This document shows positions 25,138 through 44,584 of a DNA stretch of 45,327 nucleotides, in pieces. The notes below the pieces were generated by a model, which worked only from the letters and a program-made list of their open reading frames with translations, made no database searches and was not told where the DNA came from. Origin of the DNA: a virus (Duplodnaviria; Heunggongvirae; Uroviricota; Caudoviricetes); the IMG/VR virus record IMGVR_UViG_2737471992_000006; one strand, written 5' to 3'. Positions within the stretch are counted from its first letter, which is position 1; every line of letters starts with the position of its first letter. The translations under genes and the position numbers were made by a program.

Positions 25138-25360
25138 ATGTACTCCAATGAAGAAGCCACCAACATAGCCTCCTCCATTTATCGTGAAACTATTTTCATC
25201 TACCCAGTAATGAATTCTTTGAAGAGTCGAGATCAATACAACTCACTGATGGGAGAGGCTTGTCTCACGCGTAAGGCAAGTTTCCTGTTTGATTTACTGG
25301 ACAGTATAGGGGGGCAGAATGCCTTCCTCACTCGAATCACATCAATTAAGGAGGTTCAAC

Positions 25361-25483
25361 ATGTTTCATTCCACAAGTCATCAGGCTGTAATTATGGCAG
25401 CATCAGTTTGTGCCACAGACCTTTTCCGCTTCACTTTGAGCCTGATTCATTTCTACCTGACCGGCTCGCCTCTATCTTTCTAA
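25361..25483 (+). CDS. 40-aa small ORF with a strong ribosome-binding site (not in the ORF track)
   Basis: TAAGGAGGT, 6-nt spacer, ATG at 25361, TAA at 25481..25483; moderately hydrophobic product. Could be chance. Confidence 0.2.
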   Translation: MFHSTSHQAVIMAASVCATDLFRFTLSLIHFYLTGSPLSF

Positions 25484-25632
25484 TCCCCGATTTATCCAAA
25501 TTTCACTGCCATAATGCCGACATTCTCTGCCATTGTTGGCTCCGTTTATCCGTTAAAAGGGATATCAGTTAAGTTATCCCGTGCAGGGTATAAGCCATTA
25601 TCAAACCCACCCGTAGATAGGCTTTGTAATGG

Positions 25633-26151
25633 CTACTTCTTCAGAAATGATTCGATGAATTCACGTCGAGGATGACGATAGTTCAGAATATCTTCTGGCA
25701 TCCTCATAAAGCGGTTGTTGCCGTCTTTGGCAGTAACAAAACAGCTGTGAACTCCGCAGACATCCGTTTTGATCGTGTCGCTATACTCAAAAAGCAACTG
25801 AGCCATCTTCTCTTGCCATTCTGGAGGCATAGCCTCCATGAATACTCGCGGCATCACGCAGAACGACGCATGCGTAAGACCAAACCACAGTTGCAGGTCT
25901 TTACGATATTCTTCATCCATCGTCTTTACCTTTGTTGCAATAAAAAGCCCCGCGAATGCGAGGCTAAATCCTGGTGTTTGTGATGACTGGCTCTTATCTA
26001 AACGCAGCCCCTTACCGCGCGCCAAATGCTCAACTTTAAGCATCAGCAATGAGATGTTTAATCTGGATTCACTCCAGAAGTGATCACCACCCTGTCTACA
26101 GAACCAGATGTGAAGGATGATGAGTAAAATTATCTCTATCATCGAAGGCAT
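25633..26151 (-). CDS. hypothetical protein between Rz and cos (possible N-terminal transmembrane helix plus cytoplasmic domain)
   Basis: 172-aa ORF directly after Rz/Rz1; an internal start at MDEEYRK (~95 aa) is also possible; family not recognised. Confidence 0.5.
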
Positions 26152-27554: not shown

Positions 27555-27770
27555 TTACTCTCCCCGTGCAGCCTTACGCTTGTCTTCTTTAATCTTGAAA
27601 TAAAGGTTTGTCAGATACGTCAGCAAGCCAAATACCAGACTACCCAGCACACCTATTGCCGCCCACTGTGAGGGCGTGACTTTATCGAGCAACTGTAAAA
27701 ACCAGTACCCGGCACTACCTGCTGAGGTGCCATAGGCGACACCCGTTGTTAACTTATCCATGGATTTCAT
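27555..27770 (-). CDS. S: class II pinholin (S21-like) with dual-start motif
   Basis: Near-identical in pattern to phage 21 S ([13 protein letters not shown]...[11 protein letters not shown]...NLYFKI.ED.RKAARGE); ATGs at 27770 (M-K-S-M) and 27761 give the antiholin/holin pair; GAGGTGG Shine-Dalgarno. Confidence 0.9.
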
Positions 27771-27802: not shown

Positions 27803-27831
27803 TGGAAATAAAAAGGCCACCTGACGTGGCC
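27803..27831 (-). terminator. intrinsic terminator between the methyltransferase gene and S
   Basis: Minus strand GGCCAC-GTCAG-GTGGCC followed by TTTTTATTT. Confidence 0.6.
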
Positions 27832-27837: not shown

Positions 27838-28890
27838 TTATTTCCCCACCAGCTCGTTTATCTCTTTCACTGTCTGGTTAAACCGCTCTGACTCAAGCTC
27901 AACACCTAAGGCCCGACGCCCCAGCGCCATTGCTGCTTTTATTGTGGAACCGGATCCCATAAAAAAATCAGCAACCAGATCACCAGGTCGACTACTGGCA
28001 TTGATTATTTGCCTGAGCATATCCGCCGGTTTCTCACACGGATGTTTACCCGGGTAGAACTGAACGGGTTTATGCATCCAGACATCGGTATAAGGCACGG
28101 AGACTGATACGGAGAAATAGCGCCGGAGAGATTTAAACTCATCCAGCAATTCAGAATATTTGCGATTCAGTGAATCATAAGATGCCACCAGCTGGTGGTG
28201 TGGTTGTTCCAGTTGTTGTTCCTGAAACTTCTCTGCCGCTATACGGGAAAACAGTGCCTGTAACTTCCGATAGTCAGCCTCATTCGGCAACTGCCACTGA
28301 CTGGCACCAAACCAGTGGGAAACCATATTTTTCTTACCTGTGGCTTCGGCAATTTGTTTTGCCGTTATACCCAGTTCGGCACGAGCATCCCTGAAATACG
28401 ATATCAGCGGTGCCATTATGTGCTGTTTGAGTTCCCTTTCTTTTGCCGCATAGCCGTCACTTTTGCCGCGATATGGCCCCTGGTAATGTTCAGCAAACAG
28501 AACGCGCTCTGTGGCAGGAAAATATGCGCGCAGACTTTCTTTATTACACCCATTCCAACGTCCGGACGGCTTCGCCCAGATGATATGGTTAAGCACGTTG
28601 AAACGTTCACGCATCATGATCTCAATATCAGATGCCAGGCGATGCCCACAGAACAGGTAAAGGCTTCCGGCAGGTTTTAACACCCGCCAGAACTGGGCCA
28701 GACAGTGGTCCAGCCACTTAAGGTAATCTTCGTCCCCTTTCCACTGATTGTCCCAGCCGTTGGGTTTCACCTTGAAGTACGGCGGATCGGTAACAATCAG
28801 GTCAATGGAATCATCAGGCAGGGACTGAATAAAATGCAGGCAATCAGCGTTGATTAAATCAACACTGTTTATTTTTACAGTATTTTTCAT
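27838..28890 (-). CDS. orphan DNA amino-methyltransferase, beta-class (DPPY before FxGxG)
   Basis: 350 aa; motif [10 protein letters not shown] near the N-terminus and AdoMet motif FFMGSGST near the C-terminus; no restriction partner nearby; weak Shine-Dalgarno. Confidence 0.8.
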
Positions 28891-29040
28891 GGATCAGTAA
28901 GCGTAACTCTGGTAGGCTCACTCTGCTTTTGCGCTAAAGCAGTGGGCCGTGGTTCGCTTGTGACCAGTAAGCATGAGCGAATGGCTGGCAGGTGCTACCA
29001 ACACCCACCAGCCGCCCATTTTCACAGCAGGAAACCGCCA

Positions 29041-29268
29041 TTACTGGCAGCGTCTGAATTTATTCCCGTACCCGCCGTTATCCTTCGCCAGACCCGCCAG
29101 AACTAACTGAGTCAGTATTAACTGGCACCGGGCTTCGCTTACTCCGGTAGTTCTCGTCATCATGCGTGGCGTTACCCACTTGTCAGCAGGTAAGAAATGA
29201 AGGACTGCTGCGGCGGTTTCTGTCATATCTTGCTGTTTTAGCATGTCTTTTTCCCTTCTGGTTAACAT
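29041..29268 (-). CDS. small winged-helix-like protein (unknown function)
   Basis: 75 aa; helix-turn-helix-like stretch (TTGVSEARCQLILTQLVLAGLA); weak ribosome-binding site, so only moderately supported. Confidence 0.4.
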   Translation of the reverse strand: MLTRREKDMLKQQDMTETAAAVLHFLPADKWVTPRMMTRTTGVSEARCQLILTQLVLAGLAKDNGGYGNKFRRCQ

Positions 29269-29362
29269 GACATACCAATAACTCTTGTCTAAAAAGCCAG
29301 CAAGATAAAAAGTCAGTATTCACGACCACCAGCGTGTTTACTGTACTGCACCAGGTTTACAG

Positions 29363-29390
29363 GTACAAAAAAACCGCTCAGCGGCGGGTT
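29363..29390 (-). terminator. intrinsic terminator (tR' candidate)
   Basis: Minus strand AACCCGCCGCTGAGCGG hairpin followed by TTTTTTT. Confidence 0.5.
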
Positions 29391-29421
29391 TAAGTTGTGT
29401 GGCGAAGTAACCACTCTTAAC

Positions 29422-29450
29422 AGCATATTTGATTTTTTACGATTGTAAAC
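29422..29450 (-). promoter_or_regulatory. candidate late promoter PR' (TTTACA -35, 16-nt spacer, TATGCT -10)
   Basis: Sigma70-like hexamers on the minus strand between Q and the 29363 terminator; purely sequence-based. Confidence 0.2.
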
Positions 29451-29452
29451 GG

Positions 29453-29480
29453 TTGATTATTCATCTCCAATAAAAATAAT
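29453..29480 (+). promoter_or_regulatory. promoter of the lipoprotein moron (TTGATT -35, 16 nt, AATAAT -10)
   Basis: Hexamers ~35 nt upstream of the lipoprotein ATG. Confidence 0.35.
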
Positions 29481-29514
29481 TGTGTGGGTATGCCCTTAAC
29501 AATGGATAAGAAAC

Positions 29515-29961
29515 ATGAATAAAATGACTGTATTATTACTTAGCGCAACTATCATTTCAGGTTGTACTTCTTCCGTACCATTGATAAAGAAAACTCAATC
29601 AGGAAAACCTGAGGGGGTTTATCAAAATACGACAAAAGATAAAGTCAAAGATGCCCTTGTGAATTACTGCAATAGTAGAGGGTTGATAATTTACAACGCG
29701 GATAACAGCAGTGTTATATGTGGTAAAGAACTGGAAGGCGGGTCTGCTGTTTTTGGACAAATGTTAATCGGCAATGCCTATTCAACAACCCCGGTATCAA
29801 AAGTCAAATTTACTATCGCTCAAGTTAATAACGATACAAAAGTGTGGGCCGATATGTGGATGGAAACTCAAATGGCAATGGGGCAAGTACAACAAATGGC
29901 TATAACAGACAACGCAAGCAAAAACACTATCCAACAACGTCTTGATGAATTAAAACCTTAA
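29515..29961 (+). CDS. lipoprotein moron (signal peptide + lipobox ISGC), unknown function
   Basis: 148 aa, AT-rich codon usage, opposite strand to all flanking phage genes, with its own promoter and a downstream hairpin. Confidence 0.75.
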   Translation: MNKMTVLLLSATIISGCTSSVPLIKKTQSGKPEGVYQNTTKDKVKDALVNYCNSRGLIIYNADNSSVICGKELEGGSAVFGQMLIGNAYSTTPVSKVKFTIAQVNNDTKVWADMWMETQMAMGQVQQMAITDNASKNTIQQRLDELKP

Positions 29962-29982
29962 GTAAATTAATTAAATAAAATG

Positions 29983-30004
29983 GGGAGAATAAATCGACTC
30001 CCCA
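29983..30004. terminator. bidirectional hairpin between the lipoprotein gene and Q
   Basis: GGGGAG-N10-CTCCCC; the T-rich run is on the minus-strand side (after Q), weaker on the plus side. Confidence 0.4.
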
Positions 30005-30045
30005 CACATTAAACTGATTCAATTACCCCCTTAATAAGAGGTCTT

Positions 30046-30411
30046 CTAACGATCCATCTCTAGCTCAATTTCTAACATCATTAACATGCCATCAACTACA
30101 CCTTCAGCCTTTTGCAATAAACGCCCAACCCAGCAATCAGAACGCCCATGTTTACGGGCAAGCGCCATAAACGTCATACCACCTACATAATAATCCACTA
30201 ATAAATCGTGCAAATCGCTGTTGTTCTTTTTCAGGCGAGCCATGCATCCACAAATGATCATCGCGTCATCGTCACAACATTGCGGGCGGGATTTTACTTT
30301 TGAAGGGATTAGTCCTTTAAATCCTGCAGCAATAGACGACCAAGTGACATCCTCGTGATTATTTGCCACCCATGCCCCCCAACGTTCAAGAACCATTTGA
30401 ATATCACGCAT
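30046..30411 (-). CDS. Q: late-gene antiterminator Q (phage 21/82-type small Q)
   Basis: 121 aa from the ATG at 30411 (GGAG Shine-Dalgarno); [14 protein letters not shown]...CGCMARLKK pattern of Q21-family antiterminators. Confidence 0.8.
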
Positions 30412-30428
30412 CAACTTTCTCCACAAAA

Positions 30429-31424
30429 TCAGGCCAGCACGCCAATTGCCAGCGCACGATCGATAAAACGAAATATCAGCTCCAGCTGGGAGCCATACTT
30501 CTCTTCAAATGCCACGGTATCCGCATGCAGCTCGTCGTGATGCTTTCTGCACAAAGGCAACACAAAAAGGTCATGCGCTTTTGTTCCCATTCCACCCTGA
30601 CCGTGACCTATCAGGTGGTGGGGATCATCAGCAGGCTTTCCACAACATGCACACGGCTGTGTCTTAACCCAGCGCGTGTACTTTTCATTAACCCAGCGGC
30701 GGCGTTTTGGGCGTAACATAAAAGACTCCGGCGACTCCGGATCCACTTTCAGCGCCAGCACCTTTTTTGCCTTATCCTGGATGATGCTGGTGGCAGGAAC
30801 CGAAGGCACAAGGTCACTTTCCCGGGTGACAGACGGCACAACAGGCTTTGGTAATCTCAGTGCCTTACGGGCTGCACTTTCCGGTAAGGCATCCGCCAGG
30901 TCATTACGAATCAGCCACCAGCACAGTTCCGGCATTGTCACAACGTGACTATCATCAAAACCGAGATCCCGACGCACAACAGACAACACCCAGCGGGCAC
31001 AGTTATCCGTTGCCATTGATTCCAGCCGTTCCGTGAACTGATCGCGCAGCTGGTTATCGCAGTGCCAGCACAGACGGATTGCGCCCGGAGCGTGTCGCAT
31101 TGTGGTCATGTTCTCGCTGTGCCAGTCGGAATGAGGCCACTGGCAGCCTTTTTCACGAAGTAACCAGCTTTCAAGACATTCCACGCCACCAGCACGACGG
31201 ATCACTGCCTCATTGCGGAACACGGCCCGAACGGCAGGATCATCCGCCAGCGGTTGTGATGCCGCCGGAACGGCACCACTGGCGAAAGATGAATAACGTT
31301 CCGGCTCAGGCTCCAGCAGAACACGCCCCTGCATAAACAGGGGCATCAGCTCTGAACCTGGCCTGAACAATACGATCCCCATACGCGGGGCAATTTCAGG
31401 GGTCAGTAGTGCTCTCACGGTCAC
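30429..31424 (-). CDS. DUF968-family protein with C-terminal HNH-like zinc motif
   Basis: C-terminal CACCGKP..DPHHL...[12 protein letters not shown]; usual position upstream of Q. Start uncertain (GTG at 31424 or ATG at 31382). Confidence 0.7.
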
Positions 31425-31425
31425 C

Positions 31426-32235
31426 TCAATGAACGGTATCGAGCAGCTTTAACAGCTCAGGGAATCGGGATTCGAAGAAATGCGGCTGCGTCTCGCGCGG
31501 ATTTGCAGGACTGGTGATGTTCTTGCCGAACATGCAGCCTTTCGCCGTCAGCGACCAGAATTTTTTGATGTTGTTAATCGCGGTACGGCTGTATCGTTCG
31601 CGTTGTTCAACGATCCCCAGCTTCACCATCTGGTGATATGCCTGATTAGCCGTCAGGCGGATACCATACTGCTTCAGCAGTGCACTCAGCGACAGCGTGG
31701 GGCGACTTGAGCCATCAGGCGCGTCAGCAGGAGCATCAATGGCATAGCGTGGTGCCAGATTCGGTAAGCCAACAGCCTCCTGAAGCTTCTGACAGGCTCC
31801 AAGCACTGATGAGTTAGACAGATTTAATTCCCGGCGCATAAAGTCCAGCAGGATCACGCCAGCCTGCATCTTGTCAGCAGCCTGTCCGGATAATTTTTCC
31901 GGTGCGCTGGTTACCATGTCGAAAGTACGGATCACCTTCAGATGGAATGACGGGCTGATCCACATTGCATAGGCATACACCAGTTCTTTGCAGACATACG
32001 TCCCCTGGTTATTTCCGCCATTAATGACGCTAACTGGTTGATTTTGTTCCAGAGGCGGAATTCCACCCTCGGTGAAAAGTTGTTCAATCAATTCACAGGT
32101 TTGCTTATTGGAGAGCCAGTATTTCGGGCGGTTTTTTTGTTCTCCCCCGGCAGCCCTGTGCAGATCGTTCAGGCTGTAACGCCCATAAGCATCACGACGA
32201 ACTTCAATACCATCAATGACCATCAGATTATTCAT
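31426..32235 (-). CDS. KilA-N domain protein
   Basis: 269 aa from the ATG at 32235 (GAGGAG Shine-Dalgarno); N-terminal KilA-N-like region (VIDGIEVRRDAYGRYSLNDLHRAAG...KYWLSNKQT). Confidence 0.75.
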   Translation of the reverse strand: MNNLMVIDGIEVRRDAYGRYSLNDLHRAAGGEQKNRPKYWLSNKQTCELIEQLFTEGGIPPLEQNQPVSVINGGNNQGTYVCKELVYAYAMWISPSFHLKVIRTFDMVTSAPEKLSGQAADKMQAGVILLDFMRRELNLSNSSVLGACQKLQEAVGLPNLAPRYAIDAPADAPDGSSRPTLSLSALLKQYGIRLTANQAYHQMVKLGIVEQRERYSRTAINNIKKFWSLTAKGCMFGKNITSPANPRETQPHFFESRFPELLKLLDTVH

Positions 32236-32254
32236 ACTTCGTTTCTCCTCTTGA

Positions 32255-32644
32255 TCAGGCGGCTGCACCCGCCGTTTTCTCGTACTTACTGATGGTGATC
32301 TCGACCTTCCCTTTCGGGATAACCGGTCCCCACTCCACCAGCATTCTTTTCACCTGTCTGTCGTCTTCCCACACACCCGCGTGGGTCAACGCGTCAAACA
32401 GCGCCTTGTTATAGTTGTCCAGATCGCGGATCCGGTTATCCGGAGGAAACAACACGATCTCCACTGCAGCAGGTGCCGACGTTGGTTTTGGCAGACGACG
32501 TAACTGCTCAACTATTGCTGCGCACGCCGCGCTCTGAAATTTTCGCCCCGCCGCGCTTATCAGGCTCTTACCAGCAAATGCCCCTTTGTTGGGGTGTCGC
32601 CAGTACGTGTTCACGCTGGGCGGGAAAGGCAGGATCAGCTTCAT
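32255..32644 (-). CDS. rusA: RusA-family Holliday-junction resolvase
   Basis: 129 aa; LPFPPSVNTYWRH ... RDLDNYNKALFDALT pattern. Confidence 0.85.
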   Translation of the reverse strand: MKLILPFPPSVNTYWRHPNKGAFAGKSLISAAGRKFQSAACAAIVEQLRRLPKPTSAPAAVEIVLFPPDNRIRDLDNYNKALFDALTHAGVWEDDRQVKRMLVEWGPVIPKGKVEITISKYEKTAGAAA

Positions 32645-32967
32645 ACTTTCAGGCCTCTCTCATGTAACCAGTGGGCTGCACGCAGCCTGGCGTTTTCCTC
32701 ACCGGCAAGCAGTGAGCGGATAATCCCGACCGCCTCGCTGTCGTCGTCCTTCACCGCGGTATGAAGCGTGATACCCCGGGCCACGCCACGCTTTATCGTG
32801 ATGACGCCTTTTTTCTCCAGTGCGCGAAGATGTTCCACCGCTGCATTCACTGAACGGTATCCCAGCATGGTTGCCACCTCCTGATTGGTTGGCGGGAAGC
32901 CACGTTCTTTCTGGTAAGAAATCAGCATATCCAGCACCTGCTGCTGGCATTGAGTTAACGTCGTCAT
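32641..32967 (-). CDS. LexA N-terminal DNA-binding-domain homologue lacking the S24 peptidase domain
   Basis: 108 aa; strong resemblance to the LexA N-terminal domain (QQ.VLD.I......GFPPT..E.A..LG.RS.NAA.EHL.AL..KGVI.I..G.ARGI.L); no Ser/Lys dyad region. Confidence 0.7.
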   Translation of the reverse strand: MTTLTQCQQQVLDMLISYQKERGFPPTNQEVATMLGYRSVNAAVEHLRALEKKGVITIKRGVARGITLHTAVKDDDSEAVGIIRSLLAGEENARLRAAHWLHERGLKV

Positions 32968-33617
32968 GCCGCCATCTCCCTGACCAGTTTTTCCGCCTGC
33001 TGGCGAACCTGCGCCAGAAACGCCTCACCACATGCCTCAAGTTCATCACGCCCGATGTAGCTGATTGCCGGTCCCTTCCAGGTCTTGTCGAAAACAGCAA
33101 TAGCACCAGCGAAGAAAGCGCCTGTCGGCACCTGCTTCTCGTCCTTCGGTATAAACCAGGCAGGCAGTTCAAAACCAATACGCCCGCGAATAAAAGCAAT
33201 ATGATCTGCATCTTCCGGCCACCACACTTCGCTGGTGGCCGCTTTGATCAGGAAAACATAGCGCCCGCCCTTATCACGCATGGCACTGGCATGTTTCATG
33301 ATGTAACGCATGCCGGTGATGTATTGCCCCTCATGCTGACTGGCGCGGCTGTATGGGGGATTACCAAAGGCAGCACCTTTAAGCTCCGCAAGACGTTCTG
33401 ACCAGTCATGCGCCAGCGCGTTATCTTCCGCCGTGTAATACGCGGCACATTTGGCGTTATCACCGTCAGTAAACAGATCCAGAACAAACGGGCCAAACAG
33501 GGTGTTAATTCCCCAGAAAATGTTGTCCGGCGTGCGCCACTGATCGCCCACTTCCTTCAGTTCATGGGCTGGTTTGTTCCGCAGTTCCACCAGCGCCTGG
33601 CAATATTTATTACTCAT
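32964..33617 (-). CDS. phage Dam-type N6-adenine DNA methyltransferase (NPPY)
   Basis: 217 aa from the ATG at 33617; motif AFGNPPYS. Confidence 0.75.
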   Translation of the reverse strand: MSNKYCQALVELRNKPAHELKEVGDQWRTPDNIFWGINTLFGPFVLDLFTDGDNAKCAAYYTAEDNALAHDWSERLAELKGAAFGNPPYSRASQHEGQYITGMRYIMKHASAMRDKGGRYVFLIKAATSEVWWPEDADHIAFIRGRIGFELPAWFIPKDEKQVPTGAFFAGAIAVFDKTWKGPAISYIGRDELEACGEAFLAQVRQQAEKLVREMAA

Positions 33618-34105
33618 TAAGCCCCCACGTAATTCCCTGAGAGATACCACTCTTCACCTGATGCAGCCCGCTTACTGCTTTTCCGTAAACACCGTTCACG
33701 ACGCGCCAGAAAATTGTTTCGTTCTGGCTGGGAGTGGCTTTCACGGAATGCCGCCATCCACACGGTTGCAGCACGACGGTATAAGCCCCTGGACTCCAGT
33801 TCTTCAGCCTGGCGGGTCAGGCACAAAATCACCCGTGGATCGTTAGTGCCGACATAGAAATTGCGCACAGGTCTGGTTTCTCGAACTGGTTGTGGTTCCG
33901 GTTCCTGCGCTCTCTCAGTCAGGCGTGGGAAATGTCTGCGTGTATCTCCTTCACAACGGTGAGCCACACGCCCACTCTGACGTAACTTGCTTGCTGACTG
34001 CAGAACGCGCTGCCGTGAGTAACCTGCAAAAGCATCCGCAATGTCTCCGGAAGTACACCCCGGATGGGCTTCAATGAATTTCTGAACTTCATTCAAAAGA
34101 CTCAT
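33617..34105 (-). CDS. PerC-like transcriptional activator candidate
   Basis: 162 aa; C-terminal LESRGLYRRAATVWMAAF resembles the PerC/Pch motif as I recall it; provisional. Confidence 0.4.
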   Translation of the reverse strand: MSLLNEVQKFIEAHPGCTSGDIADAFAGYSRQRVLQSASKLRQSGRVAHRCEGDTRRHFPRLTERAQEPEPQPVRETRPVRNFYVGTNDPRVILCLTRQAEELESRGLYRRAATVWMAAFRESHSQPERNNFLARRERCLRKSSKRAASGEEWYLSGNYVGA

Positions 34106-34107
34106 GA

Positions 34108-34926
34108 TCACCCCCTGAATCCTGCCGGGATCTGGCTGTAGTCCACGTTGTCGTAACTGGCTTTGAAGTACGGGTCCTCGCGTCTGGCTGCAGATACCGC
34201 AGGAACTTCCCAGGATTCTTCGAAATGACGATCCGGACCAAAGAACGTGACAGCCTGTTTCACAAATTGTGTGCCGCTGTTACCCATCGCAGATACCCAG
34301 CCCGCGTAGCGTTTCACACCTTCCAGCATGGTTTCGGGGTTTACTCCCTCATTCAAACGGGCTTTCCAGGCTTTGAAGGCTGCAGATTTTGAATTGCCAC
34401 CAGCACGTTTGGGATATGCCAGCCATGCCTGCTCAAACTCCGGAGAGTATTCCGGTCGGTTTGAACGAACTCGCACGGACTCATCAACTGATGCACCAAC
34501 AGCTATTGGTTCATTGACTGGTTCTTTGACTGGTTCAAAAGAGTGACTGGTTCTGGGTGAATCTCCTGCACTACCCCCTGGTGCAACTCCTGCACTACCT
34601 GGTGAATTTGCTGCACCAGATAGTGAATTATTTGCACTACCCCCTAGTGAATCTCCTGCACCATCCAGATGAAGGAGATAGATATTACTTGAGTTACCTT
34701 TTTCACCTTTCCGGGTGACTTTTTTTACCAGCCCGGACTCACAGAGGGCCGCAATATGATTCATCACAGAACGTTTGCTAATCTCGCACTGATCAGCGAT
34801 ATGCTGATAGCTGGGCCAGCACTCACCCTGATCGCTGGCATTATCAGCCAGCTTGATCAGAACTAGTTTTCGCAATGGATTACCCACTCGAATTTTCATC
34901 GCTTTCACCATCAGCTCCATACTCAT
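34108..34926 (-). CDS. replication initiator (lambda O-like, iteron-binding) containing the origin
   Basis: 272 aa; winged-helix N-terminus, Gly/Ser/Ala-rich linker encoded by the iterons, C-terminal domain; GGAGGTG Shine-Dalgarno. Confidence 0.75.
   Translation of the reverse strand: MSMELMVKAMKIRVGNPLRKLVLIKLADNASDQGECWPSYQHIADQCEISKRSVMNHIAALCESGLVKKVTRKGEKGNSSNIYLLHLDGAGDSLGGSANNSLSGAANSPGSAGVAPGGSAGDSPRTSHSFEPVKEPVNEPIAVGASVDESVRVRSNRPEYSPEFEQAWLAYPKRAGGNSKSAAFKAWKARLNEGVNPETMLEGVKRYAGWVSAMGNSGTQFVKQAVTFFGPDRHFEESWEVPAVSAARREDPYFKASYDNVDYSQIPAGFRG
34511..34705. repeat. origin of replication: 3x GACTGGTTC and ~5 iterons (CTGCACTACC..TGGTGAAT at ~22-bp spacing) plus AT-rich tract
   Basis: Direct repeats at 34515..34556 and 34567..34672, then an AT-rich segment at 34673..34705, all inside the O-like gene as in ori-lambda. 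Confidence 0.6.
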
Positions 34927-35159
34927 GCTGCACCTCCGAGATGCTTCATGTTTTTTCCGGAGCGAAAGGTTATAAGCGGCATACTGACGCGGTAATTACG
35001 GCCCAGCGGTTCACAAATCACTTTCTGACATTCACGGTCAACCAGGCTAACACGTAGAACATGCCCTGCAGGCGTGGTGTACCACTGCCCAACTGTAGGA
35101 ATTGATGTTTTTTTACGCTGAAGTAAACGGCGAATATTGAGGCTCAACAGATTAAGCAT
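34923..35159 (-). CDS. small basic protein translationally coupled to the replication initiator (cII position)
   Basis: 78 aa; GGAGGG Shine-Dalgarno; its stop overlaps the O-like ATG (ATGA). Confidence 0.5.
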   Translation of the reverse strand: MLNLLSLNIRRLLQRKKTSIPTVGQWYTTPAGHVLRVSLVDRECQKVICEPLGRNYRVSMPLITFRSGKNMKHLGGAA

Positions 35160-35988
35160 GACGATGCCCTCCGCTGATATTCAGGAGACGGTGAATATGA
35201 AAATTAGCCTTATCCGCCAGACGAATACGTTCAGCCTGCAAGTTAAGAAGGGTTTCTACCAAAACCTGATGCGCCTGCGGATCCGAAAGAGTTACCTTGC
35301 GCAGAGCACGTAGTGCAGTTGTTACATAACTGAGTTTATGTAAGTCTTCATCATTCAGACGAGTGAGGGCTGGGACAGTAGCCATGATGGCAGCCTCCTT
35401 GATCGGTGAAATACTTCCATCACCGGAAACGCCAATTTCGCTGGTGGTGAACTGAACGGGGTTGGCGTAACCGGTGATCAAGGAAACCGGCGCATCTTTC
35501 GATGCCCCCGCCCAGCCCACCATAACTTTGATGTGAGCAAATGCGGACGATAAAAAAGACGCTGGCGCGTCATATATCGCCTTGATCAATTCCAGGACGC
35601 CAATCCCGGCACCCGCTTTATAAGGTGCCTGAACAGTGTAACGTCCCGGAATGGCAGAATCAATGTGCTGGTGGTCCTTCACACTCAACAAAATCACGCC
35701 TGAATTTCCACAAAGGACTAAAGCACTCATGCGGGTAGTCTTTGCGAAGATAGATAACGCGCTGTGTTTCTGGCTCCCAACGAATAACATGAACATAAAG
35801 TCCTCTTCTGTCACGAAACCAGCGGTTAAGTTCCTGCACAACTCGCCCCCCACAGTCAGGTAAAGTTCTCTGTGGTTACTTACAGCCAGGTGATTTGGTA
35901 ATCTGCATTCATGCCGTAACAACAGGTGTTCAGCGACGCTGGCCACCAGCTGTTGCGACAAACGGTTATTTGCCGTTAAACTGTTCAT
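35152..35988 (-). CDS. hypothetical 278-aa protein in the early-right operon
   Basis: ATG overlaps the upstream stop (ATGA); no recognisable motif (no Walker A box). Confidence 0.6.
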   Translation of the reverse strand: MNSLTANNRLSQQLVASVAEHLLLRHECRLPNHLAVSNHRELYLTVGGELCRNLTAGFVTEEDFMFMLFVGSQKHSALSIFAKTTRMSALVLCGNSGVILLSVKDHQHIDSAIPGRYTVQAPYKAGAGIGVLELIKAIYDAPASFLSSAFAHIKVMVGWAGASKDAPVSLITGYANPVQFTTSEIGVSGDGSISPIKEAAIMATVPALTRLNDEDLHKLSYVTTALRALRKVTLSDPQAHQVLVETLLNLQAERIRLADKANFHIHRLLNISGGHRHA

Positions 35989-36548
35989 GCGTTAGTTTCT
36001 CCACAGACACAAAACGCCACGACGCCCGGAGCTGCACACTCGCGGGCGTCACTCTTTTCTGGAGCGCAAAAGATTTTGTAGACCAGTGCTGCATGCTCCT
36101 GGAGCTTCGAAATTGACAGATACAACTCATCATTAATTGCTGTCTGCTCGTGTGGCTCCACTACCCCATCTTCGATTGCCGAACGAATCTGCTTTGAGTA
36201 ACTCCCGATCTGTTCGATGACTTCCAGCAGGCGCTGGTTTATATCGGCGTTCTCTACTTCCTCAATTTCAGGAAGCGATACAAACACCCCACCAGCAGAC
36301 TGTGCGACAGCATCCGCAATGTAGTGAGTGCCAGCCGCGCGCTGTAAAATCATTGCCCATCCCAGCGGGAAAATCTGATCGCCATCGGCACGAAGGCGGT
36401 TAAATAATGCGTTCTCTGTTACATCCAGCCACTCAGCAGCTTCAGCGTAACCCCCCGGCAACGCCGCGATAGTTTTTCTGACAGCTTTCACGTACCACTC
36501 AGGCTGTTTTTCTACTTTCCAGTGATGCTTACCCACGGTTAGCCTCAT
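35985..36548 (-). CDS. hypothetical 187-aa protein, first gene after cro (possible CII-like/YdaT-like regulator)
   Basis: Position and operon coupling only; the YdaT assignment is a guess. Start may be the GTG at 36536. Confidence 0.5.
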   Translation of the reverse strand: MRLTVGKHHWKVEKQPEWYVKAVRKTIAALPGGYAEAAEWLDVTENALFNRLRADGDQIFPLGWAMILQRAAGTHYIADAVAQSAGGVFVSLPEIEEVENADINQRLLEVIEQIGSYSKQIRSAIEDGVVEPHEQTAINDELYLSISKLQEHAALVYKIFCAPEKSDARECAAPGVVAFCVCGETNA

Positions 36549-36579
36549 CGTTCTGTGGTTAAAAATTGAAGGTGTTCTG

Positions 36580-36780
36580 TTAATCTTTCGGATAGATATC
36601 CGGTCTTAAGTCAGATTTCGTAATTGCACCTGACGTGCATTGCTCAAGTTTTTTAGCCAGCACAAAACTGGCTTTTTTATAACCATTGAAAACTAGCCGT
36701 AAGTAGCCTGGTGTTGAGCCAACTTTTCCGGCCAACTCGCCCTGCTGTTCTTTGGTTAAAGAGTCCCAATACGCTTTCAT
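36580..36780 (-). CDS. Cro-like small helix-turn-helix repressor
   Basis: 66 aa from the ATG at 36780 (GGAGGT Shine-Dalgarno); divergent from the repressor gene; the 167-aa ORF-track version is an upstream extension through the operator region. Confidence 0.7.
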   Translation of the reverse strand: MKAYWDSLTKEQQGELAGKVGSTPGYLRLVFNGYKKASFVLAKKLEQCTSGAITKSDLRPDIYPKD

Positions 36781-36870
36781 ACAATATGTACCTCCGATAT
36801 ACATATTACATGATTGAGATGAACCTTCAAGGTACTTGTACCCTATCGGTACAAAGGTTTTAATTTCGTT
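36781..36870. promoter_or_regulatory. divergent immunity promoter/operator region
   Basis: 90 bp between the cro-like and repressor genes with GTAC-centred inverted repeats (GGTAC-TT-GTACC, ATGTACC, CGGTAC). Confidence 0.5.
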
Positions 36871-37545
36871 ATGAAAACAGTCCATGACATCCGGCGGTCT
36901 AACGCCAGAAAACTGAGAGATGGTGTTGGCGGGAATTCTTCCTTTGCCACCATGATTGATCGCGAGCCAACCCAGACCAGCAGGTTTATGGGAGATGGTG
37001 CTACTAAAAATATCGGTGACAGCATGGCACGGCACATCGAAAAATGTTTCGACCTGCCTGTCGGATGGCTTGATCAAGAACACCAGACAACAAACATCAC
37101 AAAAAAACCTGATGTTTCAATTACTAACAAACAAATAACGTTAGTCCCTGTCATATCATGGGTACAGGCCGGAGCATGGAAAGAAGTTGGCTATTCTGAG
37201 GTTGATTTGAGCACAGCAGAAACTTATCCCTGCCCTGTACCCTGTGGCGAAATGACTTATATCTTGCGGGTGATTGGTGATTCAATGATTGATGAGTACC
37301 GCCCGGGAGACATGATTTTTGTAGATCCTGAAGTCCCTGCCTGCCACGGTGACGACGTTATTGCATTGATGCACGATACGGGCGAAACCACCTTTAAGCG
37401 GTTGATAGAAGATGGAACACAGCGTTACCTCAAAGCATTAAACCCAAACTGGCCTGAACCTTACATTAAGATCAACGGTAATTGCTCTATAATTGGTACA
37501 GTAATTTTCTCAGGAAAACCAAGAAGATACAAAATAAAGGCCTAA
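36871..37545 (+). CDS. CI-type prophage repressor with S24 (LexA-like) autopeptidase domain
   Basis: 224 aa; N-terminal helix-turn-helix ending ...IEKCFDLPVGWLD; C-terminal domain with the Ser nucleophile in VIGDSM and a downstream Lys. Confidence 0.85.
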   Translation: MKTVHDIRRSNARKLRDGVGGNSSFATMIDREPTQTSRFMGDGATKNIGDSMARHIEKCFDLPVGWLDQEHQTTNITKKPDVSITNKQITLVPVISWVQAGAWKEVGYSEVDLSTAETYPCPVPCGEMTYILRVIGDSMIDEYRPGDMIFVDPEVPACHGDDVIALMHDTGETTFKRLIEDGTQRYLKALNPNWPEPYIKINGNCSIIGTVIFSGKPRRYKIKA

Positions 37546-37556
37546 TCAATATTTAT

Positions 37557-37580
37557 AACCTGCTTCGGCAGGTTTTTTTA
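37557..37580 (+). terminator. intrinsic terminator after the repressor gene
   Basis: AACCTGC-TTCG-GCAGGTT followed by TTTTTTT. Confidence 0.65.
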
Positions 37581-37583
37581 TAC

Positions 37584-37617
37584 TTGACAATGTACCCTTG
37601 AGATACATAATGTATCT
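37584..37617 (+). promoter_or_regulatory. strong sigma70 promoter (PL analogue) with an overlapping 17-bp perfect palindrome
   Basis: TTGACA (37584..37589), 16-nt spacer, CATAAT (37606..37611); palindrome AGATACAT-A-ATGTATCT at 37601..37617; ATGTACC motif shared with the operator region. Confidence 0.55.
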
Positions 37618-38047
37618 AAAAGAAACATGCCACAGGCAAGATTAAACAAAATTTGGTTGTAACACGGCGTATGGCACATGCGTCGTTAGCGGTCTGGGGA
37701 CGTTAAAGGGGACAATCCACTCCTTGCTCGGGCAAACAAACCAGGTAGCCGGAATGTGCAAGTCAATGAGGATGCTGATAAGACGCCTAACCAGCGTGGC
37801 GATTCGGTTTGACGCCTGGGAAGAGACCAGGGTGCAACGATGAGGGCATTTATGGAACCGCGACAAAGTGTGGTGCCGTAACTGGCTAAGTGCTCTCAGC
37901 GTTGTGGTGAATGCGCAGGCTGATGCGCGAAAGACATTGCAGCTATTGCGGAAAAGAGCTGTTCGGCGGGGCAATTAAACGCCCGTGAGAGTCTGAAATA
38001 ACCGCAAGCCGGAGATCAGCACCGGTCACCACAACAGCCACTGCTTT

Positions 38048-38094
38048 GGCGGTACCAGTTTGTACACTTGCTTCCGGCTGGTACCGCTCTTTTT
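38048..38094 (+). terminator. intrinsic terminator in the early-left leader (tL1-like), overlapping a boxA-like motif
   Basis: 10-bp stem GCGGTACCAG / CTGGTACCGC, then TCTTTTT; CGCTCTTTTTACAAAA resembles boxA. Confidence 0.55.
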
Positions 38095-38231
38095 ACAAAA
38101 CAGAGAAGAGCATCACCGGACGACGGGCTCATAACCCAATCCATCCGGGCGGCAGTCACCGCAGGTGTTCTTCTCTGTTTTGTGGAGAAACCAACCGACC
38201 TTGCAGGGTCGATATGATGAGGAGCAGCAAA

Positions 38232-38594
38232 ATGGCTAGCGAACGCAGTACTGATGTGCAGGCATTTATCGGGGAGCTGGACGGCGGCGTATTTGAAACC
38301 AAAATCGGCGCAGTTCTCAGTGAAGTCGCTTCCGGTGTGATGAACACGAAAACCAAAGGTAAGGTCTCGCTCAACCTGGAAATCGAACCGTTTGATGAGA
38401 ACCGTGTGAAAATAAAACACAAACTCTCATATGTTCGCCCGACTAACCTCGGGAAAATTTCCGAAGAAGACACCACCGAAACGCCGATGTATGTCAATCG
38501 CGGTGGTCGCCTGACTATTCTGCAGGAAGACCAGGGACAATTACTGACTCTTGCCGGTGAACCTGACGGAAAACTCCGCGCAGCAGGTCATTAA
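38232..38594 (+). CDS. hypothetical early-left protein (resembles CPS-53 prophage YfdP by recollection)
   Basis: 120 aa from the ATG at 38232 (GAGGAG Shine-Dalgarno); the ORF-track start at 38046 lies inside the terminator and is rejected. Confidence 0.6.
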   Translation: MASERSTDVQAFIGELDGGVFETKIGAVLSEVASGVMNTKTKGKVSLNLEIEPFDENRVKIKHKLSYVRPTNLGKISEEDTTETPMYVNRGGRLTILQEDQGQLLTLAGEPDGKLRAAGH

Positions 38595-38659
38595 TATCGT
38601 TCTTAATTAACTGATTATTTATCTCATCACTGAATATCTTTATATAGTGAGGACTTATT

Positions 38660-39484
38660 ATGTCTCAGAACTTAGACGCAACCGCAATTAATCAAATCCA
38701 TGCCCTTATTTCTGCTCAGGGTGTTAATGAAATTATCAGTAAGATTGGTGCCGATGCTGTGGCATTGCCTGAGAATTTCCGCATTCATGATCTGGAAAAA
38801 TTTAATTTAAATCGCTTCCGTTTCCGTGGTGCGCTTTCCACTGCCAGCATCGATGACTTTACCCGTTATTCTAAAGATCTTGCAGATGAAGGCACCCGCT
38901 GCTTTATCGATGCCGATAATATGCGAGCCGTCAGTGTGCTTAACCTGGGTACTATTGATGAACCAGGTCACGCAGATAACACCGCCACCCTCAAACTGAA
39001 AAAGACAGCACCGTTTTCTGCTCTGTTGTCTGTTAATGGCGAGCGTAACTCCCAGAAGTCACTGGCAGAATGGATTGAAGACTGGGCCGACTACCTTGTG
39101 GGCTTTGATGCTAATGGTGACACCATTCAGGCAACCAAAGCGGCTGCGGCAGTCCGTAAAATCACAATTGAAGCAAACCAGACCGCTGATTTTGAAGACA
39201 ATGACTTCAGCGGCAAACGCTCTCTGATGGAGTCTGTCGAAGCGAAAACCAAAGACATTATGCCAGTGGCATTTGAATTTAAATGCGTTCCGTTTGAAGG
39301 CCTGAAAGAACGTCCGTTTAAATTACGCCTCAGCATTATCACTGGCGATCGTCCTGTACTGGTTCTGCGCATTATTCAGCTGGAAGCGATGCAGGAAGAA
39401 ATGGCTAACGAATTTCGTGATCTGCTTGTTGAGAAATTCAAAGACAGCAAAGTAGAAACCTTTATTGGTACTTTCACCGCCTGA
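38660..39484 (+). CDS. hypothetical 274-aa early protein (YfdQ-like)
   Basis: Intact ORF with GAGGA Shine-Dalgarno; recalled similarity to the uncharacterised CPS-53 protein YfdQ. Confidence 0.7.
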
Positions 39485-39612
39485 TTTCATTACTGCAAAT
39501 GCCCCTGCGGGGGCATTTATGGAAACGTAATTAACTCAATAATCACCGGATGGTGAGAGCTTCCTTTTAGCAGAATTCAGCGCGGTGCAGCGCATATAAA
39601 GTGGAGAACGAA

Positions 39613-40149
39613 ATGTCATTTATTAAAACTTTTTCCGGGAAGCATTTTTATTATGACAAGATAAATAAAGACGACATCGTGATTAACGATATCGCAGTTT
39701 CCCTTTCAAATATCTGTCGCTTTGCAGGACATCTTTCACACTTCTACAGTGTCGCCCAGCATGCGGTGCTTTGCAGCCAGCTGGTGCCGCAGGAATTTGC
39801 TTTTGAAGCGTTAATGCATGATGCAACAGAAGCATATTGCCAGGACATCCCCGCGCCACTGAAACGACTTCTTCCTGACTATAAACGGATGGAAGAAAAA
39901 ATAGACGCCGTAATCCGTGAGAAATACGGGTTACCTCCTGTTATGAGCACGCCAGTGAAATATGCCGATCTCATTATGCTGGCAACCGAACGCCGTGATC
40001 TCGGGCTTGATGATGGCTCTTTCTGGCCTGTTCTGGAAGGTATCCCGGCAACAGAGATGTTCAAAGTTATTCCACTGTCGCCAGGCCATGCCTATGGGAT
40101 GTTTATGGAACGTTTTAACGAGTTATCGGAGTTACGCAAATGCGCATGA
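39613..40149 (+). CDS. HD-domain phosphohydrolase (YfdR-like 5'-deoxynucleotidase)
   Basis: 178 aa from the ATG at 39613 (GGAG Shine-Dalgarno); HD motif residues (H...H ... MHDATEAY). Confidence 0.75.
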   Translation: MSFIKTFSGKHFYYDKINKDDIVINDIAVSLSNICRFAGHLSHFYSVAQHAVLCSQLVPQEFAFEALMHDATEAYCQDIPAPLKRLLPDYKRMEEKIDAVIREKYGLPPVMSTPVKYADLIMLATERRDLGLDDGSFWPVLEGIPATEMFKVIPLSPGHAYGMFMERFNELSELRKCA

Positions 40150-40490
40150 ATGTTTTCGAAATGGAAGGGTTTCTTCGCGGGAAATGTGTACCGCGAGATC
40201 TGAAAGTGAATGAAACAAATGCTGAGTATCTGGTGCGTAAATTCGATGAAGTACGTGCTGAGGCTCGCAACGAGGGTATTAACTATACCGCAAGCCGTCT
40301 TGCTGCTGCTTTCAATCACGGATTTATCAATAAGCCTTTGGCTGAAGTTTTCGACGTTACACGCATGATTCTGTCAGCAAAAGAAGAGTTAGCTAATGAA
40401 TCGCATCCGATTGATGGCCTGTCCGGTGAATATGCAGAGAAATCCCTTGAAGAATGGGCGGAACGGCTTCTCAAAGGAGGCAGCCAGTGA
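40140..40490 (+). CDS. hypothetical 116-aa early protein (YfdS-like)
   Basis: ORF coupled to the neighbouring genes; start at 40140 or 40146 (ATGA overlap). Confidence 0.6.
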   Translation: MRMNVFEMEGFLRGKCVPRDLKVNETNAEYLVRKFDEVRAEARNEGINYTASRLAAAFNHGFINKPLAEVFDVTRMILSAKEELANESHPIDGLSGEYAEKSLEEWAERLLKGGSQ

Positions 40491-40981
40491 CTGGACATGC
40501 AGCAATCCTCGACATGTGCTGTGGCAGTCGCATGTTCTGGTTCGATAAGAATGACGACCGGGCGATATTTAGCGATATCAGAAAGGAAGAGCACACATTG
40601 TGTGATGGACGACGCCTGATTATCAGTCCTGACCTGATAGCTGATTTTCGTGCACTACCATTTGCAGACGCATCCTTTTCGATGGTTGTATTCGACCCTC
40701 CGCATCTTGAGCGTGTTGGTGATAACGCTTGGATGGGAAAGAAATATGGACGGCTGAATAAAGATACCTGGCGTGATGATTTACGGCAGGGATTCAAAGA
40801 AGCCTTTCGTGTGTTGTGGCCATACGGCGTTCTGATTTTTAAATGGAATGAAACGCAAATACCTGTTCGCCAGATATTGGCACTGACCGACAGAAAGCCT
40901 GTTATCGGTCAACGAACAGGAAAGGGTGACAAGACCCACTGGATTATTTTTATGAAGGAGGCAACCAGTGAGCGAGATTGA
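40487..40981 (+). CDS. small amino-methyltransferase (motif I DMCCGS, motif IV FDPPH)
   Basis: 164 aa from the GTG at 40487, preceded by AAGGAGG and overlapping the upstream stop (GTGA); the target (DNA or other) cannot be told from sequence. Confidence 0.6.
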   Translation: MTGHAAILDMCCGSRMFWFDKNDDRAIFSDIRKEEHTLCDGRRLIISPDLIADFRALPFADASFSMVVFDPPHLERVGDNAWMGKKYGRLNKDTWRDDLRQGFKEAFRVLWPYGVLIFKWNETQIPVRQILALTDRKPVIGQRTGKGDKTHWIIFMKEATSERD

Positions 40982-41567
40982 TTATCAGGCGCTACGGGAA
41001 CGTTATTCACCTAAGCCAGTACCTGAATGCTCTGTTTGTGGCGAGGAAATGTCAATACAGCGTATATCTGGAGCACATGTCACTTATGCCTGCTCCGGTT
41101 ATGGTGGTGATGGAGATTTCAAAATTGGTCGCACACTTGCCGACGAGCATTATGAAAAATCACGCGTAACAGTAGTTGATGACAGTGACCCTGATGTGAT
41201 TGCACTACTGGACGAACTGGAGGCAGCAAAATTAAAACTCAACGAGCAGCGTGAGTATTACGAAGGTGTTATCTCGGATGGGAGTAAGCGTATTGCTGAA
41301 CTGGAAGCACGGGAAATAAAACCAGCCAAAGGCGAAGTTCTTGTCGTTGTCTCTGGTTTTACTGGTTGCGGGAAAAGCGCCATTGCCGGGGAAATAGAAA
41401 TTGCGATGAAAGCTATTGGTGTGCCGGTTCAATGGACTAATGGCGATGCAGAAAAGCATATGACCGGCGCTGACTGGCTGACAGCGATTGAGATGTACAA
41501 ACCAAATGTGCGCATCGTGGAAGTTAATGTGTCACGCGCCGCAGGCATTCGCATCAAAGGAGAGTGA
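40968..41567 (+). CDS. hypothetical protein with N-terminal CxxC zinc-ribbon-like motif, coiled coil and C-terminal Walker-A-like P-loop
   Basis: 199 aa; GTG start after AAGGAGG; CSVCGEE near the N-terminus; GFTGCGKS near the C-terminus. Confidence 0.6.
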   Translation: MSEIDYQALRERYSPKPVPECSVCGEEMSIQRISGAHVTYACSGYGGDGDFKIGRTLADEHYEKSRVTVVDDSDPDVIALLDELEAAKLKLNEQREYYEGVISDGSKRIAELEAREIKPAKGEVLVVVSGFTGCGKSAIAGEIEIAMKAIGVPVQWTNGDAEKHMTGADWLTAIEMYKPNVRIVEVNVSRAAGIRIKGE

Positions 41568-41568
41568 G

Positions 41569-41760
41569 ATGAACGGACAAATATCAATTGTTCGACCGGG
41601 AGCATGTGACGATTGCGAGATACGAATGATTATTCGTCTGGCGAGGGGGAAAACAATAACTGCTCTCATTACTCCTGAAAATCTCGCATTAGCATTAACA
41701 GGAAAGTCAGACCTGCCAGTAGAGCTAAAGCTGCGAAATATTGAGATTAAAGTGAAATAG
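41569..41760 (+). CDS. hypothetical small protein
   Basis: 63 aa; ATG at 41569, 2 nt after the upstream stop, with AAAGGAGAG Shine-Dalgarno. Confidence 0.5.
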   Translation: MNGQISIVRPGACDDCEIRMIIRLARGKTITALITPENLALALTGKSDLPVELKLRNIEIKVK

Positions 41761-41762
41761 TT

Positions 41763-42440
41763 ATGAATACTCTTACCAAAGAATGGTTACAGAACACGAT
41801 TACCGGAATTGAGTCGATAATAGACGATAAATCGTTTGTATGTAGTGAAATAGCATTCGAAATAGGTCAGGTTAACAACATACTTACCGCATTTAAAATT
41901 GCACTGGCATCGCTGGCAGCAAAACCGGTGGTTTACATGTGGGATAGCGAAAGAAAAGATATTGATGCCCCTGGGTATTATCGGACTGAGCATTTAGTGT
42001 TCGCTGAGAGTAGTGTTAAGAAATGGGGAGGACGAGTTGTTCCACTTTACACCGCCCCGCCAGCGACGGTAGTACCGGATGAACGTGCAGCTTTCAATGC
42101 CTGGAACAACGACGAGAACCTACCCATAGCTGGTGTCGGCGCAAAAAACGCTGCCTGGTTAGCTTGGCAAGCCCGCGCTGAGTTGGGCCGCTCGTTAGCC
42201 GTAAACTCTCCGGTAACTCCGGATGGTTGGATAAGCTGTAGTGATCGAATGCCTGAAAAGGGCCAGAACGTGCTTATTTCGGTGAATTTCGATAGCTCTC
42301 TGGTTGAACCGCTAATATGCTCCGCACGCTATACCGGAAGCACCTTTCGGCGCGGAGATGCAACGATTAAGCCGGGTAATGGTATTGAGCAAGCAACTCA
42401 CTGGATGCCGCTACCGGAACCGCCGCAGGAGGTGAAGTGA
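41763..42440 (+). CDS. Ead/Ea22-like protein with C-terminal DUF551-like domain
   Basis: 225 aa; C-terminal ...THWMPLPEPP motif typical of DUF551 as I recall it. Confidence 0.65.
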   Translation: MNTLTKEWLQNTITGIESIIDDKSFVCSEIAFEIGQVNNILTAFKIALASLAAKPVVYMWDSERKDIDAPGYYRTEHLVFAESSVKKWGGRVVPLYTAPPATVVPDERAAFNAWNNDENLPIAGVGAKNAAWLAWQARAELGRSLAVNSPVTPDGWISCSDRMPEKGQNVLISVNFDSSLVEPLICSARYTGSTFRRGDATIKPGNGIEQATHWMPLPEPPQEVK

Positions 42441-43520: not shown

Positions 43521-44555
43521 TCAGAAAAACATTTCAGCTTTTTTACCATCAAATATCCACCCGCTGGATAAGATTTTCATATTGCTAGCATAAGTAAAAG
43601 TAAATTCTATCATTATCTTTTGTTTATCATTCGGATAGTCGAAAACCTCTAATAAAAAGCAATCTCCTATAAGTGAATAACAATGTATGCAACCGTTAGA
43701 TAAATAACAATCACTGTCTCTGTCCTTAACAGTACCAATTCCAGCCGCCCAGAGTTTTTTGTTATCCACGTGAGTGGCTATTAGTTCTTTGACATCAGAA
43801 TCACGAAAAGATAAAAACTTGACGAATACTGATTTACTGTAAACAGAAATCCCCCTGATAATTCCAGTTCGTTTTTTACATCTCCAGCATTTTGTAACTC
43901 GCGATTCTATTTTTGCAGTCAGCACATCCCCAACCTTTGGGAACCATAATAGCTTTCTGGCGAAAACACCCGCGATAAACTCCCTGACACTAATCCCAAA
44001 CTGCGGTAGATACAAGTCCCCATTTTCATTCTGACGCACACCAAAAACAGGTAAATCGTAGCTATGGTATATATCCCCACCATGCTCTTTACTTCCTTTA
44101 CGTAACTTTCGCAACCACAGTGCACGGACTCCTGATGCGATATATCGTTTTTGACGTTCTTTAAACTCATCGTCTTTTTGCGGTGATAGCTGTACTTCGA
44201 AAACCAGTTTCGCATTATTTCTGGTACAAAACACATCGGCAATCCATTCTTCTCCTGCTGGGGTCACCCCTTGTTTTTCGGTAGTAACTGACCAGCCAGC
44301 ATCACTGGCTAATTTTGCGATTAAGAATTTGAGATATAAATGTTCTGCGCTTTCTTTCGCATACAGGCAATCGCTTTTGGATTTATGGGAAAAGTAATAG
44401 TTATTAAGTTTACTTGTTTTAGGTATACCAAGCTGGCCACAGCACGACATAAACAAAGACTGGCTTTTATATGTCTGTTTAAGATGTTCCCATTCCTGAG
44501 AGTTAAATTCAAAAGAATGAATTTCTTTTCCGTTAAGTGACGCTTTTAGTGGCAT
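43521..44555 (-). CDS. CoiA-like (competence-protein-CoiA family) predicted nuclease
   Basis: 344 aa; N-terminal zinc-finger pattern F.SCCG...YFSHKSKSDC...KESAEHLYLK characteristic of CoiA proteins, then a PD-(D/E)xK-like core (IADV ... FEVQ); AT-rich gene. Confidence 0.7.
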   Translation of the reverse strand: MPLKASLNGKEIHSFEFNSQEWEHLKQTYKSQSLFMSCCGQLGIPKTSKLNNYYFSHKSKSDCLYAKESAEHLYLKFLIAKLASDAGWSVTTEKQGVTPAGEEWIADVFCTRNNAKLVFEVQLSPQKDDEFKERQKRYIASGVRALWLRKLRKGSKEHGGDIYHSYDLPVFGVRQNENGDLYLPQFGISVREFIAGVFARKLLWFPKVGDVLTAKIESRVTKCWRCKKRTGIIRGISVYSKSVFVKFLSFRDSDVKELIATHVDNKKLWAAGIGTVKDRDSDCYLSNGCIHCYSLIGDCFLLEVFDYPNDKQKIMIEFTFTYASNMKILSSGWIFDGKKAEMFF

Positions 44556-44584
44556 TCATGCTACCTGTATTTACCCTCCCAGCA

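Follow-up and report, generated by a model that had tools for sequence, protein, structure and literature searches.

Phages that carry several methyltransferases are well known, and self-protection against restriction is the accepted role of orphan phage methylases. We consider here three amino-methyltransferase genes, denoted MT1, MT2 and MT3, on the Caudoviricetes record IMGVR_UViG_2737471992_000006 (45,327 nucleotides; this whole stretch is the window referred to below). The 14.5-kb region around the three genes matches the chromosome of Escherichia coli NR3736 at 100% identity, and in this chromosome the RefSeq annotation shows a prophage of ~45 kb at the 5' end of dusA. It is likely that the genes encode three independent orphan methylases with an anti-restriction role, MT1 acting late and globally, MT2 in the delayed-early phase and MT3 early.

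The closest described relatives of MT1 are M.EcoGII and M.EcoGI, non-specific adenine DNA methyltransferases from prophages of E. coli O104:H4. M.EcoGII belongs to a very extensive family found in E. coli prophages, goes unexpressed in the lysogen and is detrimental to the cell under constitutive expression (PMC5778455). For an ST131 homologue of this family no transcript was detected by reverse-transcription PCR under the conditions tested (PMC4659465), and O111 strains with two M.EcoGI/GII homologues show no matching signal in their lysogen methylomes (PMC6602927). Methylation of the M.EcoGII type has been reviewed as a 'Trojan horse' protection that is conferred as the phage leaves the cell (PMC12707154). 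Among site-specific relatives the nearest, M.PflMI, shares just 27% identity with M.EcoGII; all six reconstructed ancestors from M.EcoGII to this relative are active on DNA and RNA, and those examined for a sequence motif, SUPREM and Anc291 (the first reconstructed ancestor of the M.EcoGII clade), showed none (PMC11551740). The counterpart of MT2 is the phage Dam family, whose nearest characterised enzyme among those compared is M.EcoVT2Dam (VT2-Sakai orf32). The counterpart of MT3 is a group of small phage 'DNA methyltransferases' (PHROG 954; PADLOC models PDLC03288 and PDLC03730), for which no characterised member was found. Named members are the putative methyltransferase of Listeria phage A118, gp24 of Enterococcus phage phiFL2A and gp65 of Gordonia phage Bosnia.

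Three orphan methyltransferase genes

The three genes are located as follows.

27838..28890, minus strand: MT1, beta-class N6-adenine methyltransferase of 350 residues, late operon (PF01555; identity to M.EcoGII)
32964..33617, minus strand: MT2, phage Dam-family (NPPY) N6-adenine methyltransferase of 217 residues, nin-like region (PF05869, TIGR01712)
40487..40981, plus strand: MT3, minimal class I S-adenosylmethionine (SAM) methyltransferase of 164 residues with the motif DPPH, early-left operon

The initial annotation had described three open reading frames (ORFs) with the motifs DPPY, NPPY and DPPH, located between Q and the holin gene, in the nin region and in the early-left operon, respectively. 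The ORF list, the translations and the PGAP annotation of NR3736 agree on this description. All three ORFs are full length with intact catalytic motifs, and PGAP calls them with identical boundaries as 'DNA-methyltransferase' (MT1), 'phage N-6-adenine-methyltransferase' (MT2) and 'class I SAM-dependent methyltransferase' (MT3). The genes had further been called unrelated, which is correct for the families to which they belong but not beyond: all three products are Rossmann-fold amino-methyltransferases that share the pattern (D/N)PP(Y/H) in motif IV. The claim that cognate restriction genes are lacking also stands. The annotation of the whole prophage (RefSeq/PGAP) contains no restriction endonuclease, and the ORFs flanking MT1, MT2 and MT3 have no nuclease or defence match in Pfam or PADLOC. 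An endonuclease gene adjoining the methylase, the hallmark of a Type II restriction-modification system, accompanies none of the three.

MT1 matches PF01555 (2.2e-42, 145.9 bits, cut-off 26.7) and has the motif order of the beta class, with DPPY at residues 35-38 and FFMGSGST (FxGxG) at residues 309-316. The earlier assignment to the beta class is therefore retained, but the enzyme is not an ordinary site-specific one and falls within the M.EcoGII clade. Over the full length its identity to M.EcoGII is 81% and to Anc291 89% (sequences from PMC11551740, Table S1). These identities bracket MT1 between enzymes that lack a sequence motif, and adenine methylation by MT1 is very probably non-specific as well. 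The gene is situated between the Q antiterminator and the holin, directly upstream of the latter (PGAP), and this order is most naturally read as Q-dependent expression on the late transcript. A scan for promoters and terminators in the interval from Q to MT1 returned weak consensus matches only, and the late promoter was not located. Like its homologues MT1 lies in a prophage, and by analogy with them it would be silent in this lysogen. Between Q and MT1, on the opposite strand, lies an ORF of 148 residues (29515-29961, plus strand; PHROG 3152, 6.3e-104) in a stretch of low guanine-plus-cytosine (GC) content (0.41); it resembles a true moron more than MT1 does.

MT2 exceeds the cut-offs of both PF05869 (1.1e-45, 155.7 bits, cut-off 28.1) and the TIGR01712 equivalog model (255.3 bits, cut-off 97.05), as expected from its earlier designation as a phage Dam-type enzyme, and carries the catalytic motif FGNPPYS. 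The replication genes lie on one side of its locus and RusA/Q on the other, with yfdN (PerC-like) and a gene for a LexA DNA-binding domain as neighbours. Near-identical versions (99-100%) are encoded by phages PhiR40_1 and SfII and by several Stx2c phages. A GATC or similarly short site is the most likely specificity judging from the sequence, and since identity to the characterised VT2 Dam is 31%, GATC itself can only be inferred. Literature searches on the specificity of PF05869 and on phages with more than one methylase returned nothing on the subfamily of MT2. We take HP1 Dam and T1 Dam to be further members of the phage Dam family (PF05869/TIGR01712). Hia5 and Hin1523 were considered as members and dropped, as they have been placed as Dam-like enzymes of another class (PMC3299994). 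The ratio of observed to expected GATC sites over the window is 0.71, a mild under-representation. The longest GATC-free stretch (2046 bases, 40197-42243) spans MT3 and the Ea22 region, and another (1159 bases, 28892-30051) spans the spacer from Q to MT1.

As a combination the trio is not remarkable, given the prevalence of its members. Among 5426 complete E. coli genomes, DNA similar to MT1 is present in 1265 (~23%), to MT2 in 2120 (~39%) and to MT3 in 943 (~17%). The pair of MT1 and MT2, which is standard for phages of the SfV type, occurs in SfV, cdtI, mEp460 and PhiR40_1 at 97-98% DNA identity, and the Stx2c phage EH0430 harbors MT1 (85%) and MT3 (96%) without MT2. Similarity to SfV, cdtI and mEp460 ends at ~40248, just before MT3. 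The ORF directly upstream of MT3 is chimeric, its N-terminal 42 residues corresponding to PHROG 583 and residues 36-116 to the end of PHROG 614; because it joins two families in this way, we regard it as the recombination junction that brought the MT3 module. Strain A1 alone, among the best E. coli matches, has all three genes in one place. The trio is a rare combination of common modules, as lambdoid mosaicism predicts. Each of the families is already common in enterobacterial prophages and the finding is mostly ordinary: it is recognised that temperate phages counter restriction with orphan methylases, of which one genome often has several, and two of the three genes belong to described families, one of them with a well-studied close relative. 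As stated, the observation therefore adds little. It does correct an annotation, in that the 'DNA-methyltransferase' gene between Q and holin, found in ~23% of complete E. coli genomes, is best taken to encode a global adenine methylase of the M.EcoGII type. The only part out of the ordinary is MT3, a gene of ~17% of these genomes and of phages of many phyla whose family is uncharacterised.

The small DPPH protein and its substrate

Clustered at 90% identity, the MT3 family falls into at least 7984 groups; at 50% identity it has 2033 representatives (E <=0.001). The MT3 protein matches PHROG 954 (8.7e-89) over residues 11-173 of the 175-residue ORF translation as well as the PADLOC MTase_II/oMTase models (6.8e-74 and 1e-49); the homologues have N-termini that fit its start codon at 40487. 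In Pfam no family scores above its cut-off. The match to Methyltransf_11 (PF08241) reaches 18.4 bits, below the gathering cut-off of 21.2, which some relatives exceed (e.g. P0150 at 34 bits). The motif region reads VVFDPPHL, and there is no recognition domain. In an alignment of 52 relatives the invariant residues are D9, D30, R32, P48, D70-P71-P72-H73, E105, R108, K119, W120 and P138. The structure predicted from a diverse alignment is a compact Rossmann fold in which DPPH follows strand 4 (predicted local distance difference test, pLDDT, 93.6); a model from close homologues alone was poor (pLDDT 57). A literature search on the DPPH family found no experimental description of MT3 or its relatives.

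The best sequence and fold matches of MT3 are generic class I methyltransferases, and its family profile matched no solved DNA methylase. A reading of MT3 as a permuted beta-class DNA methylase was rejected. In hhalign comparisons the family profile is linked to MT1 and YhdJ with 92% probability, and to BioC, a control that does not act on DNA, with 92.6%; because the control scores equally, the link to the beta-class enzymes is non-specific. Circular permutation of MT1 did not lengthen its match to the MT3 profile. A Pfam scan of relatives with N-terminal extensions likewise gave no informative DNA-binding fusion. Many homologues from Enterobacteriaceae (P0014, P0106, P0120 and others; 248 residues) have a C-terminal extension of ~85 residues that is absent here, and we assume that it represents a fusion with the downstream Ea22-like gene.

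With respect to the substrate of MT3, DNA is probable. Relatives at 48-64% identity occur in temperate phages of Streptococcus, Listeria, Gordonia, Acinetobacter, Vibrio and Porphyromonas, and the host range covers Proteobacteria, Firmicutes, Actinobacteria and Bacteroidetes. In the phage contigs examined these relatives are found in early or replication modules, adjoining methylases of PF00145 or PF01555 and having no nuclease partner. The Vibrio phages K30 and K18 have flanks that are 99.7% identical, and the slot between them is occupied by a gene of the MT3 family in one and of the PF05869 family in the other. The swapped cassette of ~660 bases is located between the replication genes and ninB (K30 2486-3007; K18 2468-3013). 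It is because of the DPPH motif, the phage-wide distribution, the neighbouring DNA methylases and this cassette swap that we favour DNA. On DNA, the specificity of MT3 is most likely short or relaxed.

The competing possibility is that MT3 is not a DNA methylase and instead acts early in infection on RNA (for example forming N2-methylguanosine or N6-methyladenosine in transfer or ribosomal RNA), on a glutamine in a protein or on a small molecule. We consider this somewhat unlikely. The invariant DPPH is typical of the methylation of base amino groups, and in hhalign neither PrmC nor RsmD reaches a probability of 3%. Only phage contexts are seen, next to genuine DNA methylases, and the Vibrio slot exchanges the gene for one of the Dam family. 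The PHROG label and the REBASE-derived PADLOC labels, which are annotations and not experiments, also call the family DNA methylase.

A further proposal goes beyond the substrate and is made tentatively, as we think it unlikely: the relatives of MT3 may form a family of DNA amino-methyltransferases that is as yet uncharacterised and whose members are minimal, ~155 residues in size, with an invariant DPPH and no recognition domain. If so, MT3 could have very relaxed or no specificity and form a second, far smaller 'global' methylase beside MT1, and the family might offer a compact tool for chromatin footprinting.

Role of the three genes

Self-protection against restriction, as the initial annotation had suggested, is the best-supported role and an accepted one for genes of this kind. 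As far as gene order indicates, MT3 would be made from the leftward early transcript and MT2 from the rightward delayed-early transcript. MT1 would stay silent in the lysogen and be expressed together with the late genes once Q has acted as antiterminator. It would methylate most adenines of the replicated phage DNA ahead of packaging, and the packaged DNA would reach the next host already protected against many restriction systems. The proposed three times of expression are thus retained insofar as the genes occupy three transcription units (early-left, nin-like and late), but lysogeny is an unlikely label for MT1. The same holds for its description as a moron with epigenetic effects on the host, both unlikely for a family whose members are reported to be silent in the lysogen and to do harm on expression (PMC5778455, PMC4659465, PMC12707154). 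The gene between Q and holin is best taken for a methylase that acts on exit, not for a gene of lysogenic conversion.

Several observations weigh against this assignment of roles. About 19% of the positions of MT1 differ from M.EcoGII, and specificity may have been gained or lost. MT2 is just 31% identical to M.EcoVT2Dam, and the timing of expression in this prophage is read from gene order only. Finally, the pseudogenes (Rz, HNH, Ea22) imply that the prophage may be unable to finish a lytic cycle.

Three other explanations were weighed. MT2, and perhaps MT3, may serve the life cycle of the phage instead of protection from restriction, by providing full methylation of the fast-replicating phage DNA for packaging, control of replication or escape from mismatch-repair nicking. 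Phage P1 requires its own Dam at the pac sites (PMC12707154), of the GATC sites in lambda DNA just about half are methylated by host Dam (PMC3299994), and MT2 belongs to a family named after Dam. No methylation-dependent site was identified in the prophage, however, and the under-representation of GATC is mild (0.71), which leaves this role rather unlikely. It is compatible with an anti-restriction role, and the two are not mutually exclusive.

Less probable still are three site-specific orphan methylases that would widen protection and reprogram the host epigenetically in the lysogen. The three different families in three transcription units agree with such a function, and the prophage-borne M.EcoGIII does alter host expression, though as part of a restriction-modification pair (PMC6602927). 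Yet MT1 falls within the non-specific M.EcoGII clade, for which a role in host epigenetics is unlikely, and where lysogens harbor several prophage methylases, their methylomes contain no motifs but those of Dam and those linked to restriction. That the prophage is decaying and has left the three genes as inert remnants is very improbable: pseudogenes are indeed annotated (Rz, an HNH gene, Ea22 and a capsid fragment), but the three ORFs are full length with intact motifs and recur as identical or near-identical copies in many other strains and phage genome records. The preferred reading thus remains that of three orphan methylases with an anti-restriction role.

Prophage setting and known systems

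The element is a mosaic lambdoid prophage that combines an early region of the SfV/e14 type with lambda-like structural genes. From the integrase at the left end of the window follow tail, head and terminase genes (lambda-like, minus strand), the lysis cassette, the Q antiterminator, the nin-like region, the replication genes and the immunity region. The latter is of the e14/SfV type (ymfK, ymfT, ymfL), and the early-left operon lies on the plus strand. Features near the methyltransferase genes are the following.

27555..27770, minus strand: holin essD, directly downstream of MT1, opens the lysis cassette (PGAP)
27815..27831, minus strand: putative terminator-like GC hairpin with a T run, immediately behind the MT1 stop codon and ahead of the holin (consensus scan only)
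30046..30411, minus strand: Q-family antiterminator upstream of MT1 (PGAP; PHROG 79, 2.6e-51)
36871..37545, plus strand: cI-like LexA-family repressor (ymfK), followed on the same strand by the early-left genes including MT3 (PGAP)
40140..40490, plus strand: chimeric ORF of 116 residues, overlapping the start of MT3 by 4 bases (PHROG 583 and PHROG 614)

Two genes upstream of MT3, yfdR (39613-40149, plus strand) encodes an HD-domain 5'-deoxynucleotidase (PHROG 318, 4.2e-110), and the early-left operon thus combines an enzyme of the nucleotide pool with a methylase. Directly after MT3 the Ea22-like gene is a pseudogene split in two (window 40968-41567). The other annotated pseudogenes are the Rz i-spanin, the HNH endonuclease near the terminase and a capsid fragment (window ~24700-26150).

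The integrase (window 1-1938 end) lies beside the intact dusA, and a dusA fragment is found at the far end, just beyond 45327. The integrase is at the end of the tail genes, distant from the excisionase-like gene. Beyond the latter a cargo block occupies the right end of the window (43521-45327, minus strand). It consists of a CoiA-like protein of 344 residues with a nuclease domain (PF06054, 1.5e-08) and two small hypothetical genes, and a Panacea-domain gene adjoins it just past the window end. PADLOC and PHROG scans of the block returned no match; it may be a defence or toxin-antitoxin module.

As a whole, the locus resembles lambdoid phages of the SfV/cdtI/mEp460 type, with which it shares the early and nin regions and the pair of MT1 and MT2, and differs from them in MT3, which lies beyond the shared region. 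MT1 corresponds to M.EcoGII in length (350 versus 349 residues), in the order of the beta-class motifs and in its prophage location; it differs at ~19% of the residues. MT2, like M.EcoVT2Dam, is small, carries NPPY and is located in a nin-like region, as is VT2-Sakai orf32. Unlike M.EcoVT2Dam it is 42 residues longer, and it represents a separate subfamily common to SfV-, SfII- and cdtI-like phages. MT3 matches the proteins of PHROG 954 and PADLOC PDLC03288 and PDLC03730 from end to end, with 48-64% identity to members from distant phyla. With the enzymes of PF08241 (PH0226, BioC) it shares the Rossmann frame and the pattern 'LPFxDxSFD ... RVLxPxG', and it is set apart from them by DPPH as motif IV, which enzymes of the PH0226/BioC type lack.

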